DNA of 64,000 nucleotides, taken from NCBI RefSeq assembly GCF_053078305.1, contig NZ_CP166879.1. The stretch is one strand, 5' to 3'. The translations under genes were made by a program, and so were the position numbers. Below, piece after piece: positions 3,676-31,693 of this stretch; position 1 is the first letter of the stretch, and each line of letters opens with the position of its first letter. The notes beneath the pieces are model-generated. The model did not search any database. It was not told where the DNA came from and was given only the letters and a program-made list of their open reading frames with translations.

Positions 3676-4809
3676 CTACACCGGCAATGTTTTCAACAAT
3701 CCAAATGCCTCTTTCATCCGATCCTCACTGACCACAAAGGCGCGAAGTTGGTCTGCATCGTCAACACCGCGCGCCACCATTCCCTGGCGTTCGGTATTAA
3801 TCTGCCAGCGTAAATCCTGACGCTGGGTTTCGCCTGCCAGATGCAGCGGTAATTCCGGCGTTTTGATTTTCACCAGCATCGCCGGTAGTTTCAGCGGCGT
3901 GTTATTGCCGAGAAGATTTTTTGCCAGCACCATCGCGCTAAGTTGAATCGGCTGCAGGAACGGCAGTACCTGACCGTTAATTTCCGCGCAATCGCCCAGC
4001 GCGTAAATATCGGCATTACTGGTTTGCAGATAACTATCGACGCAAACGCCGCGATTAATCGTCAGCCCGGCGCGTCGTGCCAGGGCGGTTTCCGGGCGCA
4101 GTCCGGTGGCGGCAATTACCGCATCCACTTCGATGCTACGCTGGCGGTCCAGCGTTGCCAGAATGCCAGAATCCGTTTTTTCCAGCCCCTGCAACTGAGA
4201 TTTCAACAGCAGATGAACGCCCATCTCCGTCAACCGATGCTGCAAGCGGCTGCTTACTTCCGGTGGCATTAACGACGCCAGAATACTGGTAGCGTTGTCG
4301 ATTAGCGTAACCATTTTGCCTGCACGACAAAAATCCATCGCCAGTTCGCTACCAATCAAACCACCGCCAACAATCAACACGCGTCGGGCATCCCGCAGTT
4401 GCGTTTCACAGGCGCGATACTCTTGCTGACTATTTAACGTCAGCATTAACTCACGCCCAGGCACAGGCGGGACAAAGGCGCTGGCACCAGTTGCCAGCAC
4501 TAACTTGTCGTATTGCCACTGATTATTCTGGCTTTTCACCACATGGGCTTCGGCATCGATATCCGTCACCCAGGTGTGCGGAAACAGGCGCAGATTAAAC
4601 TGCTCGGCAAATTCACCCGCCGTCTGGCGGGTAAGGTCGTCGGCACGTTGCCCCTGACTGATAACATGGCTGAGGTCAGGTTTGTTGTACTCATCCATGC
4701 TGTCGGCGGCAATCAGGGTTAATGGAATACTGGCGTCCTGTTTGCGAATATTTTTCACCAGTTGGCGGGCGGCGAAGCCCGAACCAATGATCACAATGCC
4801 GTTGCTCAT
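3676..4809 (-). CDS. norW: NADH:flavorubredoxin reductase NorW
   Basis: 377-aa ORF; N-terminal GxGxxG FAD/NAD fold ([14 protein letters not shown]); directly downstream of norV with 4-bp overlap. Confidence 0.93.
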
Positions 4810-6245
4810 TTTGCCTCCGATGCCAGTTCGTCAAAGACGTCTTTGCCGAGGGAGCATTCCGGGCACAGGAAGTTATCCGGGACTTCACTCCACGGCGTTC
4901 CTGGCGCAACGTCCTGCATTGGCTCGCCTTTTGCCGGATCGTAAATCCACTGGCAGACGCTGCACTGCATCCGTGGGCCGAGGTCAGCCGTCGTGGTGGC
5001 AGAGGTTTCTTCTTTAACTACCGTATTCACCGTGCTCTGCGGCAGCGGCGCGAGCGCCCACTGACGGGCGATTTCGCGACCGTGTTCACGGCATAACTCC
5101 AGAGCGTCCTGGTCTGGTCGCCATTTCGCTTTCAGGCTAAGCGACATTTCGAAACCCGCATCCTGCAGGCGCGTGGAAAGACGATCCACCGCACCGCCGC
5201 TCCAGCCGTGAGAGCCGAAAGCACTGGCGCGTTTGTTACGGAAGCGTAATCCGGTCATCTCCTCCACCAGCCCGGCGATTTTCGGCATCATCACGTTATT
5301 CATCGTCGAAGTGCCGACCAGCACGCCTTTTGAGCGGAAGACATTGGTCAGGATTTCGTTTTTATCGCTTCGGGCGACGTTGAAAATTTTCACCGCCACG
5401 CGTGGGTCGGTTTCCGCAATCCCCTGGGCGATAGCGTCAGCCATCATGCGGGTGTTATTCGACATGGTGTCGTAGAAAATGGTGATTCTGTCTTCCTGAT
5501 AATCAGCGGCCCACTTCAGGTACAGCTCGACAATTTGCGTCGGGTTATCGCGCCAGACCACGCCGTGGGAGGTCGCTATCATATCGACTGGTAAGTTAAA
5601 GCCCAGGATCTCGGTAATTTTCGGCGTTACCAGGCGGCTGAACGGCGTCAGGATATTGGCGTAGTAACGCTGGCACTGCTCGAAAAGCTCCGTCTGATCC
5701 ACTTCATCGTTGAACAGATGCTCGTCGCAGTAGTGCTGACCGAAAGCATCGTTACTGAACAGCACCGCGTCGCCTGTCAGGTAAGTCATCATGCTGTCCG
5801 GCCAGTGCAGCATTGGTGTTTCGACAAAAATGAGCTGTTTGCCGTTGCCGATATCCAGCGTGTCGCCAGTTTTCACCACATTAAAATTCCACTCCGGATG
5901 ATGGTGATGACCATTTATCGAGTCGATAGCGTTGGCTGTACAGTAGATCGGCGTATCGGGAATTTGTGCCATCAGTTCGGTCAGCGCCCCGGCGTGGTCC
6001 TCTTCTGCATGGTTAATCACGATGTAATCGATATCCGCCAGATCGATTTCATTACGCAGGTTCTGCACAAATTCGCGGCTGAATTTATGGTCGACGGTGT
6101 CGATCAGCACGTTTTTTTCTTCGCGGATGAGGTAGCTGTTGTAGCTGCTGCCGCGCAGCGTTTTATATTCCGTGCCGTGAAAATCACGCACTTCCCAGTC
6201 ACGTTGACCCACCCAATGAATGTTATTTTTCACCACAATAGACAT
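4806..6245 (-). CDS. norV: Anaerobic nitric oxide reductase flavorubredoxin NorV
   Basis: 479-aa ORF; metallo-beta-lactamase-like, flavodoxin-like and C-terminal rubredoxin ([14 protein letters not shown]) regions. Confidence 0.95.
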
Positions 6246-6291
6246 AGCAACCTCAATTTATTCAGCGTGTTCTAAAAAGATGTCTTGCTAA

Positions 6292-6309
6292 TTGCAGATT
6301 GCGTGCCAG
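6292..6309 (-). promoter_or_regulatory. sigma54 (-24/-12) promoter of norVW
   Basis: Minus-strand reading cTGGCACgcaatcTGCAa fits TGGCAC-N5-TTGCA; located about 50 bp upstream of the norV ATG. Confidence 0.75.
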
Positions 6310-6363
6310 TTTTTTATCTGATTGTTTTTACTCTATAAATAAAATTATGCTCATTAGTGAGTA

Positions 6364-6419
6364 GTCAAAATGACTATCAATCAAATGGTCGATATGACAA
6401 TATCTATAGTCAAATTGAC
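6364..6419. promoter_or_regulatory. Three NorR enhancer sites (GT-N7-AC): gtcaaaatgac, gtcgatatgac, gtcaaattgac
   Basis: Three evenly spaced GT-N7-AC motifs at 6364-6374, 6388-6398 and 6409-6419 in the norR-norV divergent intergenic region, upstream of the sigma54 promoter. Confidence 0.8.
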
Positions 6420-6431
6420 AGTGAGGCAAAG

Positions 6432-7946
6432 ATGAGTTTTTCCGTTGATGTGCTGGCGAATATCGCCATCGAATTGCAGCGTGGGATTGGTCATCAGGAT
6501 CGTTTTCAGCGCCTGATCACCACGCTGCGTCAGGTGCTGGAGTGCGATGCGTCTGCGTTGCTACGTTACGACTCGCGGCAGTTTATTCCGCTTGCCATCG
6601 ACGGGCTGGCGAAGGATGTACTCGGTAGACGCTTTGCGCTGGAAGGTCATCCACGGCTGGAAGCGATTGCCCGCGCGGGTGATGTGGTGCGCTTTCCCGC
6701 AGACAGCGAATTGCCCGATCCCTATGACGGTTTGATTCCAGGGCAGGAGAGTCTGAAGGTTCACGCCTGCGTTGGTCTGCCGCTGTTTGCCGGGCAAAAC
6801 CTGATCGGCGCATTGACGCTCGACGGGATGCAGCCCGATCAGTTCGATGTTTTCAGCGACGAAGAGTTACGCCTGATTGCCGCGCTGGCGGCGGGAGCGT
6901 TAAGCAATGCGTTGCTGATTGAGCAACTGGAAAGCCAGAATATGCTGCCGGGCGATGCCGCTCCATTTGAAGCGGTGAAACAGACGCAGATGATCGGTCT
7001 GTCGCCAGGCATGACGCAACTGAAAAAAGAGATTGAGATTGTGGCGGCGTCCGATCTCAACGTCCTGATCAGCGGTGAGACGGGAACCGGTAAGGAGCTG
7101 GTGGCGAAAGCGATTCATGAGGCCTCGCCACGGGCGGTGAATCCGCTGGTCTATCTCAACTGTGCCGCACTGCCGGAAAGTGTGGCGGAAAGTGAGTTGT
7201 TCGGGCATGTGAAAGGAGCGTTTACTGGCGCTATCAGTAACCGCAGTGGGAAGTTTGAAATGGCGGATAACGGCACGCTGTTTCTGGATGAGATCGGCGA
7301 GTTGTCGTTGGCATTGCAGGCCAAGCTGCTGAGGGTGTTGCAGTATGGCGATATTCAGCGCGTTGGCGATGACCGTAGTTTGCGGGTCGATGTGCGCGTG
7401 CTGGCGGCGACTAACCGCGATTTACGCGAAGAGGTGCTGGCAGGGCGATTTCGCGCTGACTTGTTCCACCGCCTGAGCGTGTTTCCACTTTCGGTGCCGC
7501 CGCTGCGTGAGCGGGGCGATGATGTCATTCTGCTGGCGGGGTATTTCTGCGAGCAGTGTCGTTTGCGGCAGGGGCTCTCCCGCGTGGTATTAAGTGCCGG
7601 AGCGCGAAATTTACTGCAACACTATCGTTTTCCGGGGAACGTGCGCGAACTGGAACATGCTATTCATCGGGCGGTAGTGCTGGCGAGAGCCACCCGCAAC
7701 GGCGATGAAGTGATTCTTGAGGCGCAACATTTTGCTTTTCCTGAGGTGACGTTACCGCCGCCAGAAGCGGCGGCGGTGCCCGTTGTTAAGCAAAACCTGC
7801 GTGAAGCGACAGAAGCGTTCCAGCGTGAAACTATTCGTCAGGCACTGGCACAAAATCATCACAACTGGGCAGCCTGCGCGCGAATGCTGGAAACCGACGT
7901 CGCCAACCTGCATCGGCTGGCGAAACGTCTGGGATTGAAGGATTAA
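6432..7946 (+). CDS. norR: Nitric-oxide-responsive sigma54-dependent transcriptional activator NorR
   Basis: ORF 6357..7946; from [18 protein letters not shown].. contains GAF domain, AAA+ sigma54-interaction domain ([14 protein letters not shown]) and C-terminal HTH; start placed at ATG 6432. Confidence 0.92.
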
Positions 7947-28082: not shown

Positions 28083-28418
28083 TTATATAATCGCCATCAC
28101 TTTCCAGGCGAGCCCATAGGCCAGCGCACTAAGCAGTGTTGGGATGATAATGCTGCGTGTTTTATAGAAACTGGCACCCAGTACCGCGAAGCCGACCAGC
28201 GTGGGCACGAAACGGCGTGTATCGTGCATCACTTCTGGTGCGGTAGAGACAACCAGCAGAGCGCATATCGAGGCGATGCCAATGGTGTCGAGCAAAATAC
28301 CTACCGCGCCACGTTTGGTTGGGCGGGCATTACCCACACGCAGGCGCAGCGGCAAATAGCGGAAGCAATAATTCGCCGCGCCAACCAGTAACCCAAGCAG
28401 CAGAACCTCATAGCTCAT
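28083..28418 (-). CDS. ygaH: Branched-chain amino acid (L-valine) exporter small subunit YgaH (AzlD-like)
   Basis: 111-aa hydrophobic ORF overlapping the ygaZ stop. Confidence 0.88.
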
Positions 28419-29145
28419 CGGGCGCTCCTTGCCAGAATGCCTGGATTAACGCAGTGAGGCAGCCACAGACAATGCCTGCCAGAATGGCGACGGGAATAGA
28501 AAATAGCGTTACGCCTGCAAGGGCACCAACTAACGCTGCGGTAACGCAAAGAGATTGTTTGCGCTGGAAAGAGGCGAGCAGGAAACTCATAAAGAGTGCC
28601 GGAAGCATAAAACCTAATGCTGCTTCAACGGCGGGATAACCTTGCAGCAAGCCGCTGCCGGAGAATGCCCCTATTACCGTACCAAATACCCACGATGACC
28701 ATGAACTGAAGGCAATGCCGATCATCCAGTTCTCGCTCCAGCGGCGATTATTGCGTACCAGTTTTGCGGTGGCGGCGGCAAAAACCTCATCCGTCAGGCC
28801 AAACGCCCATAGGGCGGTTTTCGATTTTTGCAGACGCTGAATAATACGGCTACGCAGTGACGGGCCATACAAAACATGGCGAACATCCATTGCCATGACG
28901 GTCAGTGCAGCAACCCACAAACTACTCCCTGCTGCCAGCATCGCGGTAATGACGAACTGGCTCGCGCCTGCATAAATGATGCAGGAGAAAAAAACGCTTT
29001 CGAGAGGAGAGAATCCCAGACGGGTCGCATTCAGACCGAACGCAAAGGCCACCGGAATATAACTAATAACAATCGGTAAACTGTCTTTGCATCCTTCCAT
29101 GAAGGTCGCCGAACCAGGAGCAGGCTGTGGAGTAGGGCTTTCCAT
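28408..29145 (-). CDS. ygaZ: Branched-chain amino acid exporter large subunit YgaZ (AzlC-like)
   Basis: 245-aa hydrophobic ORF; ygaZH operon arrangement. Confidence 0.9.
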
Positions 29146-29268
29146 AGAGTGTACGCTTAACGATTGTTAATATTATAAATAGACTGAATGAATATCTTAA
29201 CCTTATCAGACTGATGGGCTTCTTAACACCCTTATAAGTGTAAAGCCACGAAAACGGTTGCTGATTGC

Positions 29269-30453
29269 TTAATTTGCGGCTTCCTGACGATGAAAACCTC
29301 GCCACCAGACCAGTAAGTTAACCAGGGCAATCGTCGCGCCAGCCAGACAAACGCCAGCCCAACCGCCATGTTGCCAGGCTGAGGCTGAAATTAGCGAACC
29401 GGCGGCACCGCCAATAAAGTAGCTGGTCATGTAACCTGCGGTCAGGCGATTACGCGCATCAGGATGTATTCGATAAATTACCGTCTGGTTAGTGATATGC
29501 ACGCCCTGTACGGTGAGGTCCAGCACCAGAATGCCGATAATCAACGCCAGTACGGAAGTGTGACCAAACCAGATTGCCAGCCATGAAAGTAACAGCAGCA
29601 GCAGACCGAAAGTTGTGGTGTGGTGCGATTTGCCCTTGTCGGCAAAACCGCCCGCCGGACGAGCGCCCAACGCTCCGGCAGCCCCCGCAAGTCCAAACAG
29701 ACCAATGACGCCATCGTTGTAATTAAAAGGCGGTGCGGCAAGCAAAAAGGCCATTGAGGTCCAGAGAATGCTGAAGTTGGCAAAGGTCAGGCAGCCCAGC
29801 AACGCGCGGGTGCGCAGGATCTTATTGCTGATAAACATACTGAAAACGGAACCCAACAACTGTGGGTAATTGAGGTGGGTTTCTGATTTCATTTGTGGCA
29901 GACCACGCCATAATGCTAGCGCCATCAGAGCCATTAACACCGAGGCAACCCAAAAGACGGTGCGCCAGCCGCCGAGGTTTGCCAGTAACCCGGCAACGGT
30001 TCGTGCCAGCAATATCCCCAACAGCAGGCCGCTCATAATGGTGCCAACCACTTTGCCGCGTTTATCCGGTGAAGCCAGCGTCGCTGCCAGTGGAACCAGA
30101 ATTTGTGCCACGACTGAGAATAAACCGGTTAATGCCGTACCGAGGATCATCATCGCCAGCGACTGACTGCTGGCGGTAATCAACATGCCGCATGCCGCCA
30201 GTAAGGTCATCGAGACAATCAGGCGGCGGCGTTCAAACATATCACCGAGGGGAACAAGAAACAGTAGACCTGCGGCATAGCCCAACTGCGCGGCGGTAAC
30301 AATAAAGCCTGCCGAACTGGCGGAAAGGGAAAAGTTACGCGCGATGGTGTCGAGCAATGGCTGGGCGTAATAGTTACTGGCTACCGCCAGACCGGTGGCG
30401 ATAGACATCAGCACGATTAGCGCCGGGCTAAGCTCATGATTAGGTTTGGTCAT
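29269..30453 (-). CDS. ygaY: MFS transporter YgaY, apparently intact (394 aa)
   Basis: Single uninterrupted 394-aa ORF with 12-TMS MFS character; position between ygaZ and proX. Confidence 0.85.
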   Translation of the reverse strand: MTKPNHELSPALIVLMSIATGLAVASNYYAQPLLDTIARNFSLSASSAGFIVTAAQLGYAAGLLFLVPLGDMFERRRLIVSMTLLAACGMLITASSQSLAMMILGTALTGLFSVVAQILVPLAATLASPDKRGKVVGTIMSGLLLGILLARTVAGLLANLGGWRTVFWVASVLMALMALALWRGLPQMKSETHLNYPQLLGSVFSMFISNKILRTRALLGCLTFANFSILWTSMAFLLAAPPFNYNDGVIGLFGLAGAAGALGARPAGGFADKGKSHHTTTFGLLLLLLSWLAIWFGHTSVLALIIGILVLDLTVQGVHITNQTVIYRIHPDARNRLTAGYMTSYFIGGAAGSLISASAWQHGGWAGVCLAGATIALVNLLVWWRGFHRQEAAN

Positions 30454-30554
30454 TATTTTTGTTCATCAGGTGATGATTAAGCTGGAAATCAATAATAGCG
30501 GATGTTGATGAATATGGGATGAAAGATAGATTGTTGAAATGTGCGGTGTGGTTT

Positions 30555-30636
<82 letters not shown>

Positions 30637-30644
30637 AATAAAAA

Positions 30645-31637
30645 TTACTTCTGCGCTGCCAACGCCTCATTCACCCAGCCATCGAACTGTTGCTGGTGGG
30701 CTTTGATCCAGCCATCAACGTGGCCCTGAATATCGCCTTCTGAGGCTTTGCCGTCATGCATAATGGCGTTCTGGGCGTTAATATCTGCCACTGGCAACTG
30801 CATAATGGCAAACAGTTTCGCTGCTGCAGGGTTTTTCTCGGCCCAGGCTTTATTGGCAACGATATGCATGGTGCTGACCGGGAAGCCGTAATTCGCGCCA
30901 TTCGGCAGTTTGGTATCGGCATTTTTATCGCCCGGCAGTGCAGAGAACGGCACCTGCAACCAGACCACATCTTTCCCTGGCTTCAGCTCATTACTCACCC
31001 AGTACGGCGTCCAGGTGTAGTAAAACACCGGTTTGCCCTCTTTGTAACGACTGATGGTGTCAGCCATCATCGCCGCGTAGTTCCCCTGATTATGCGTCAC
31101 GGTATTGGTCAGTTCATACGCGGCAAGCTGGTGGTTGATCGCCCCTTCGCAGCCCCAGCCAGGGTTACAGCCAGTCAAATCCGCTTTACCGTCGCCGTTG
31201 GTATCGAACAGTTTGGCGATCTTCGGATCTTTTAGTTGTGCGATGTTGGTGATTTTGTACTGGTCGGCGGTTTTCTTATCGATCAGGTAACCCTGTGCCG
31301 CGCCGTTAACAAATACCCCTTCACGATAAAATTTCTTATCGCCACCGGCAGCTTCGTACATGTTGTCATGCAGTGGCGTCCAGTTCACGGCGGTGAAGGT
31401 TGCATCGCCGGAAGCAAGCGAGGTGTAGCCAACGTTGTAATCTACTTCGCTGGGTTTGTTGACGGTATAGCCTAATTTCTCCAGCGCACGGCTGACCAGC
31501 AGTGTCTGGAAGGTTTCTTCGGTGATGGTGCTTTGAACTGGATTAACAGTAATGCCTTTGCCCGGCAGATCGGCAGCAAAAGTTTGTGTAGAGATAAGCG
31601 TGGCAAACGCTGTCGCAAAAAGTACGCTATGTCGCAT
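30645..31637 (-). CDS. proX: Glycine betaine/proline ABC transporter periplasmic binding protein ProX
   Basis: ORF 30645..31685; from [28 protein letters not shown].. with signal peptide; start placed at the internal Met. Confidence 0.93.
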
Positions 31638-31693
31638 TGTTATTCCTTTTTTTGGCAGGGTGATATGCCCGGCGTCACCGGGCAAGTGCAGAG

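Follow-up and report, generated by a model that had tools for sequence, protein, structure and literature searches.

In Escherichia coli K-12, ygaY is already known to be a pseudogene, and intact copies elsewhere are likewise known and are the norm for the species. Metabolic-engineering papers reportedly mention ygaY and suggest its use as an integration site; these mentions aside, the literature on the gene treats it only as a K-12 pseudogene, as a neutral control, a role in which its deletion has served in published K-12 work, and as an H-NS bridge anchor. Nothing relevant was found in the literature under ygaX, b2680 or b2681.

The characterised transporters closest to YgaY are members of the DHA1 (drug/metabolite:H+ antiporter) group. 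SotB/YdeA, a DHA1 sugar efflux transporter of E. coli (PDB 6KKI/6KKK/6KKL), has a 12-helix architecture and a similar size in common with YgaY and is its best full-length structural match (TM-score 0.84-0.90, rmsd 2.3-2.7 Å). The DHA1 multidrug:H+ antiporters MdfA, NorA, EmrD and Bcr/CflA share the fold as well (TM-score 0.78-0.85), but are only about 15-17% identical to YgaY, in which the canonical motif C is absent. For NorA, the mutant names E222Q and D307N in the PDB point to membrane carboxylates as putative protonation sites.

The ygaY locus

The window, i.e. the whole stretch of 64,000 nucleotides analysed here, carries the gene on its minus strand:

29269..30453, minus strand: ygaY coding sequence, 394 aa plus stop (open-reading-frame listing, Pfam, RefSeq CDS, AlphaFold2 model and TM-scores)

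The open-reading-frame listing gave a single ATG-initiated frame of 394 codons, with proX (ORF 30645-31685) as its 5' neighbour and ygaZ (28408-29145) as its 3' neighbour. The minus-strand order proW, proX, ygaY, ygaZ, ygaH, mprA agrees with the K-12 map nrdEF-proVWX-ygaY-ygaZH-mprA-emrAB. Over 1.6 kb the DNA is 100% identical to that of strain YZMc3-1, where RefSeq annotates the 1185-bp CDS as WP_000165682.1, 'MFS transporter', a protein identical to YgaY of the window. At the DNA level this allele is uncommon, with 99% identity or more over the 1.6 kb in only 12 of 5,439 records.

When the region 20000-44000 was compared with the complete-genome collection, the best matches (99.1% over 24 kb) were freshwater, otter, frog and chicken isolates, followed by O157:H7 strains at 98.9%; the lineage of the window is absent from this collection. 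From ygaZ to proX (28408-31640, compared with 4133-7355 of the K-12 locus sequence L001) the divergence from K-12 forms a mosaic, with about 33 mismatches lying within nt ~360-1030 of ygaY, about 31 in the central and 3' portions of proX, and near identity in ygaZ, in the spacer and over the initial 360 nt of ygaY. This pattern suggests recombination blocks.

A 7-bp deletion disrupts ygaY in K-12

In MG1655 (NC_000913.3), ygaY (b2681, formerly ygaX/ygaY, b2680-b2681) is annotated as a pseudogene of 1178 bp, and in a second K-12-type laboratory strain it is annotated as 'frameshifted'. Locus and neighbours are the same as in the window, with proVWX upstream and ygaZH-mprA-emrAB downstream. Pairwise alignment of the two copies revealed 37 substitutions and one 7-bp gap over 1178 aligned bases, and the gap falls on a short repeat:

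30185..30198, minus strand: perfect 7-bp tandem repeat GCGGCAT-GCGGCAT, gene nt 256-269, codons 86-90 (A-A-C-G-M), inside TM3 (alignment with b2681)

The window ygaY has two copies of GCGGCAT and is uninterrupted, whereas K-12 is one copy short. Past the deletion the K-12 frame reads GCG GCA TGT TGA, which shifts translation inside TM3 and ends it after 88 residues. The loss of one GCGGCAT copy is the pseudogenising lesion of K-12 ygaY. Replication slippage classically removes single units from tandem repeats and would most simply account for the missing 7 bp. The sequence-only reading had named ygaY as annotated as disrupted in K-12 and had proposed alignment with the K-12 locus as the way to find the lesion; the statement was correct, the alignment places the lesion at the repeat in gene nt 256-269, and the K-12 copy is frameshifted rather than identical and intact.

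Just past the deletion (L001, at about 5572) the ATG of Met90 in K-12 retains the original downstream frame and opens an ORF of 305 codons (MLITASS...), presumably the one that was formerly listed next to ygaX as a gene in its own right. A product of this ORF would miss TM1, TM2 and part of TM3.

Family, predicted fold and direction of transport

YgaY scored 141.7 bits (E = 3.4e-41) against Pfam PF07690 MFS_1, for which the gathering cut-off is 33.4, and thus belongs to this family. An AlphaFold2 model built from an alignment of 97 diverse homologues was all-helical with high confidence (mean pLDDT 94.9, pTM 0.92) and comprises 12 transmembrane helices, as expected of an MFS protein, plus one interdomain helix. 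The modelled helices of the N-terminal half span residues 10-40, 45-71, 75-94, 99-126, 132-161 and 163-184; a linker helix (196-209) is followed by helices 211-239, 247-272, 276-298 and 301-329 of the C-terminal half. DSSP assigned residues 331-393 of the model to one continuous helix, which we read as TM11 and TM12. The single 394-aa ORF with full MFS topology that had been reported from the letters of the DNA is therefore borne out by the ORF listing, the MFS_1 score and the 12-helix model.

Both sequence and structure place the nearest relatives of YgaY among DHA1 members. Foldseek against solved structures gave TM-scores of 0.84-0.87 to full-length SotB and MdfA, with the ranking SotB, MdfA, NorA and then VMAT, and in a profile search of the PDB SotB came first with a full-length match (E = 3e-16), ahead of EmrD and YajR. 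Among the NCBIfam models that matched over the full length, the efflux models PRK03545 'sugar transporter', Cmx/CmrA and Bcr/CflA scored best. None of them assigns YgaY to a named subfamily or equivalog, as all 25 models listed in the NCBIfam scan scored far under their cut-offs, the top full-length score being 64.6 bits where 401 would be required. This score belongs to NF002921 'sugar transporter', which we take to be the SotB/YdeA model. Given this miss and a sequence identity of about 17%, YgaY is not a SotB orthologue and the substrate of SotB is not transferable to it. Identity to the closest characterised exporters is about 15-17% throughout, and the family itself is a large one: at E <= 1e-30 it comprises 1,154 clusters (50% identity).

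Three features within the protein bear on its mechanism:

30220..30255, minus strand: MFS motif A region, residues 67-78 (VPLGDMFERRRL), between TM2 and TM3 (HMMER alignment to GlcP)
30001..30003, minus strand: codon of Arg151, a nearly invariant basic residue inside TM5 (homologue alignment; model helix 132-161)
29518..29520, minus strand: codon of Asp312, a nearly invariant, membrane-embedded acidic residue of TM10 (homologue alignment; model helix 301-329)

In the HMMER alignment the stretch P68-L-G-D71-M-F-E-R75-R-R-L is paired with PLADKLGRRRL of GlcP. It represents a variant form of motif A (G-x-x-x-D-[RK]-x-G-R-[RK]), with Met in place of R/K and Glu74 in place of the usual Gly; among the 97 homologues P68 never varies, and conservation of G70 and D71 is at least 90%. 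A second copy of the motif, G-F-A-D272-K-G-K, can be read after TM8. The antiporter motif C (G-x-x-x-G-P-x-x-G-G) gave no regular-expression match in TM5 of YgaY, which reads G137-TIMS-G142-LLL-G146-ILLA-R151 and contains no Pro; in its place the family conserves G137, G142, G146 and R151. Asp312 is a candidate protonation or substrate site, and Arg151 is a candidate part of a coupling or substrate site. The parallel between Asp312 and D307 of NorA is that of a membrane-embedded acidic residue as putative protonation site in both proteins.

Since every NCBIfam subfamily score lies far under its cut-off, it is resemblance to the nearest neighbours that suggests export, and on these grounds we favour a putative exporter by somewhat better than even odds. 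That YgaY instead imports its substrate as a solute:H+ symporter is possible, though clearly the less probable direction: the best matches of the N-terminal domain include the symporters TIGR00895 (aromatic acid/H+ symport, 73 bits) and GlcP, and motif C, which is typical of antiporters, is not canonical in YgaY; however, the symporter matches are confined to residues ~20-190, whereas the full-length matches in sequence and structure are led by the exporters SotB, MdfA, NorA, EmrD, Bcr and Cmx. Around distant homologues (57%, 50%, 46% and 41% identity) no conserved partner gene was found that would hint at a substrate.

Orthologues, selection and expression signals

Orthologues of 394 aa are present in E. 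fergusonii (97% identity), E. albertii (95%), Citrobacter (93%) and Salmonella (92%). Together with the E. coli and Shigella proteins (e.g. WP_000165682.1) they form an orthologue group defined by 92-99% identity over 394 aa and by the position between proX and mprA-emrAB, a synteny that holds in K-12, Citrobacter and Salmonella. The order in Citrobacter is that of E. coli (proVWX-ygaY-ygaZH-mprA-emrAB), and the order in Salmonella is proVWX-ygaY-mprA-emrAB. Genes ygaZH, which encode the AzlC/AzlD valine exporter, are thus missing from Salmonella between ygaY and mprA (L004, 5186-5681) and present in Citrobacter and E. coli; because Salmonella has ygaY without them, ygaY and ygaZH are not an obligate unit. 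Both the start codon and the N-terminus MTKP(N/T)H(E/G)LSPALIVLMS are kept in E. coli, Salmonella and Citrobacter.

Substitutions between the window copy and three others were distributed as follows:

Window versus K-12: 35 synonymous and 2 non-synonymous (N210D, N246S); dS 0.124, dN 0.0023, omega 0.019
Window versus Salmonella: 172.7 synonymous and 37.3 non-synonymous; dS 1.00, dN 0.044, omega 0.044
Window versus Citrobacter: 181.6 synonymous and 38.4 non-synonymous; dS 1.13, dN 0.046, omega 0.040

These dN/dS values of 0.02-0.04 indicate strong purifying selection on ygaY. That omega is low even in the comparison with the K-12 pseudogene implies a recent inactivation in K-12.

The DNA on both sides of the gene was inspected for signals of expression:

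30454..30644, minus strand: proX-ygaY spacer (upstream comparison, Rfam match and sigma-70 scan)
30558-30635, minus strand: REP/BIME-type element in the distal part of this spacer (Rfam naRNA4 (CssrE), 76.4 bits; gathering score 59.5)
29146..29268, minus strand: ygaY-ygaZ spacer, holding a good sigma-70-like site

The 105 nt of the upstream spacer that adjoin ygaY are AT-rich (35% GC) and include a -10-like TATTAT/TATGAT element about 40 nt upstream of the gene, conserved with Salmonella and Citrobacter. No recognisable Shine-Dalgarno sequence precedes ygaY, and a simple sigma-70 scan detected no ygaY promoter in the upstream spacer. Terminator-like matches inside the coding sequence were at chance level (4 versus 2.3 expected). 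Due to the REP/BIME-type element the 1.6-kb query matched a median of 9 places per genome. In BL21 and some other strains the proX-ygaY spacer is longer by 100 bp. The downstream spacer contains TTAAGA-17-TATAAT (29200-29172, minus strand; 10/12 match to the consensus), and from this sigma-70-like site ygaZH probably has a promoter of its own.

In K-12 the ygaY region has been described as anchoring an H-NS bridge and as transcribed at a low level that depends on StpA, in connection with the 'crypticity of ygaY' (PMC10656529). Intact ygaY might accordingly be effectively cryptic, i.e. silenced by H-NS, equipped with poor translation signals and without contribution to the cell, so that its loss in K-12 was inconsequential. 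The effects of H-NS and StpA and the low transcript level reported there would fit such a state, as would the AT-rich upstream DNA without Shine-Dalgarno sequence or scan-detected promoter and the observation that K-12 grows well without ygaY, with the deletion serving as a neutral control. We nevertheless regard it as unlikely, because an omega of 0.02-0.04 at dS values near 1 is unexpected for a gene that is never expressed, length and start codon are conserved across three genera, and the K-12 expression data concern the pseudogene allele. Low dN/dS, the conservation of length, start and synteny across genera and the complete modelled MFS fold are the reasons why YgaY of the window is probably functional.

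Distribution and direction of the 7-bp change

When 5,401 complete E. coli genomes were searched with a 70-nt query spanning the K-12 junction, 353 matched exactly. By this query, which reads the 7-bp junction alone, the remaining 5,048 count as undeleted; they fall into bands of 80-95% identity, as expected from 7 extra bases, and all sampled rows outside the exact-junction set span 77 nt against the 70 of K-12. All 60 junction carriers that were listed, like the four among the sampled rows of the junction query, are K-12 or laboratory derivatives, among them MG1655, C600, DH1, DH5alpha, J53, HMS174 and NCM3722. Concordantly, an intact 1185-bp ygaY CDS is annotated in BL21, in one ST131 strain and in one O157:H7 strain, and in a spread sample of 39 genomes the length within the gene differed only in three rows, which carry the K-12-type 7-bp deletion (1594 nt).

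The sequence-only reading had ascribed an intact ygaY to this strain as something retained. Intact it is, but this is not special to the strain: about 93% of the genomes (5,048/5,401) are undeleted, and K-12 is the outlier.

Slipped-strand mispairing is known to act on perfect tandem 7-mers, and this one has undergone a deletion once; it might therefore be a contingency (phase-variable) site that toggles ygaY recurrently in E. coli. This is very improbable, as the one-copy form occurs in one lineage (K-12) among the 5,401 genomes, two copies are fewer than the repeat number typical of contingency loci, and a three-copy repeat was found in 0/5,401 genomes, with no full-length match to an 84-nt construct; phase variation of ygaY was rejected on the latter grounds. 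Since the junction is confined to K-12 derivatives and the three-copy form is missing, the distribution points to a single deletion event in the K-12 lineage, older than the split of the common laboratory sublines, at a site without recurrent slippage.

Outside Escherichia, ygaY is 1185 bp long in both Salmonella and Citrobacter, and the repeat units are imperfect (GCGGCTT GCGGAAT in Salmonella, GCCGCAG GCGGCAT in Citrobacter). As the units have diverged in both outgroup genera, the two-copy frame is ancestral, with the perfect form of the repeat peculiar to Escherichia. The opposite course, in which K-12 retains an ancestral one-copy form and a 7-bp duplication joined ygaX and ygaY into the 394-aa ORF, has next to no chance of being right and was ruled out by the outgroup comparison: two sequences alone would leave the direction of a 7-bp indel in a tandem repeat ambiguous, but Salmonella and Citrobacter have the uninterrupted 1185-bp gene with diverged repeat copies, E. 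fergusonii and E. albertii have 394-aa orthologues, and the one-copy form encodes a truncated MFS protein with fewer than three helices that is confined to K-12 derivatives.

Proposed role of YgaY and its loss in K-12

We consider it highly probable that an ancestral, intact ygaY, likely encoding a DHA1-type transporter, lost one repeat copy in K-12. The sequence at 29269-30453 of the window represents the ancestral intact allele of a core gene of Escherichia, Citrobacter and Salmonella. Its product would most likely be a proton-coupled secondary transporter of the DHA1 type, and it may export small solutes by rocker-switch alternating access between the N- and C-terminal six-helix bundles, with the buried residues Asp312 (TM10) and Arg151 (TM5) as candidate coupling or substrate site. 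The K-12 lineage has lost one repeat unit in TM3, most simply through slippage during replication, leading to the frameshift and to termination after 88 residues. That the constant placement of ygaY in Escherichia, Citrobacter and Salmonella, between the osmoprotectant uptake operon proVWX and the efflux locus mprA-emrAB, marks an active exporter with a related role, e.g. in the release of compatible solutes or toxic metabolites, and that this role escaped notice as E. coli genetics is nearly all done in K-12, where the gene is dead, is a speculative extension that we think doubtful.

To the known pseudogene status of ygaY in K-12 these data add the exact lesion, one copy of a 7-bp repeat, the finding that this lesion is restricted to K-12, and a measure of the purifying selection that acts on the gene elsewhere. 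They imply that ygaY is a conserved E. coli transporter gene invisible to K-12 genetics, and that re-insertion of 7 bp would restore it in K-12.
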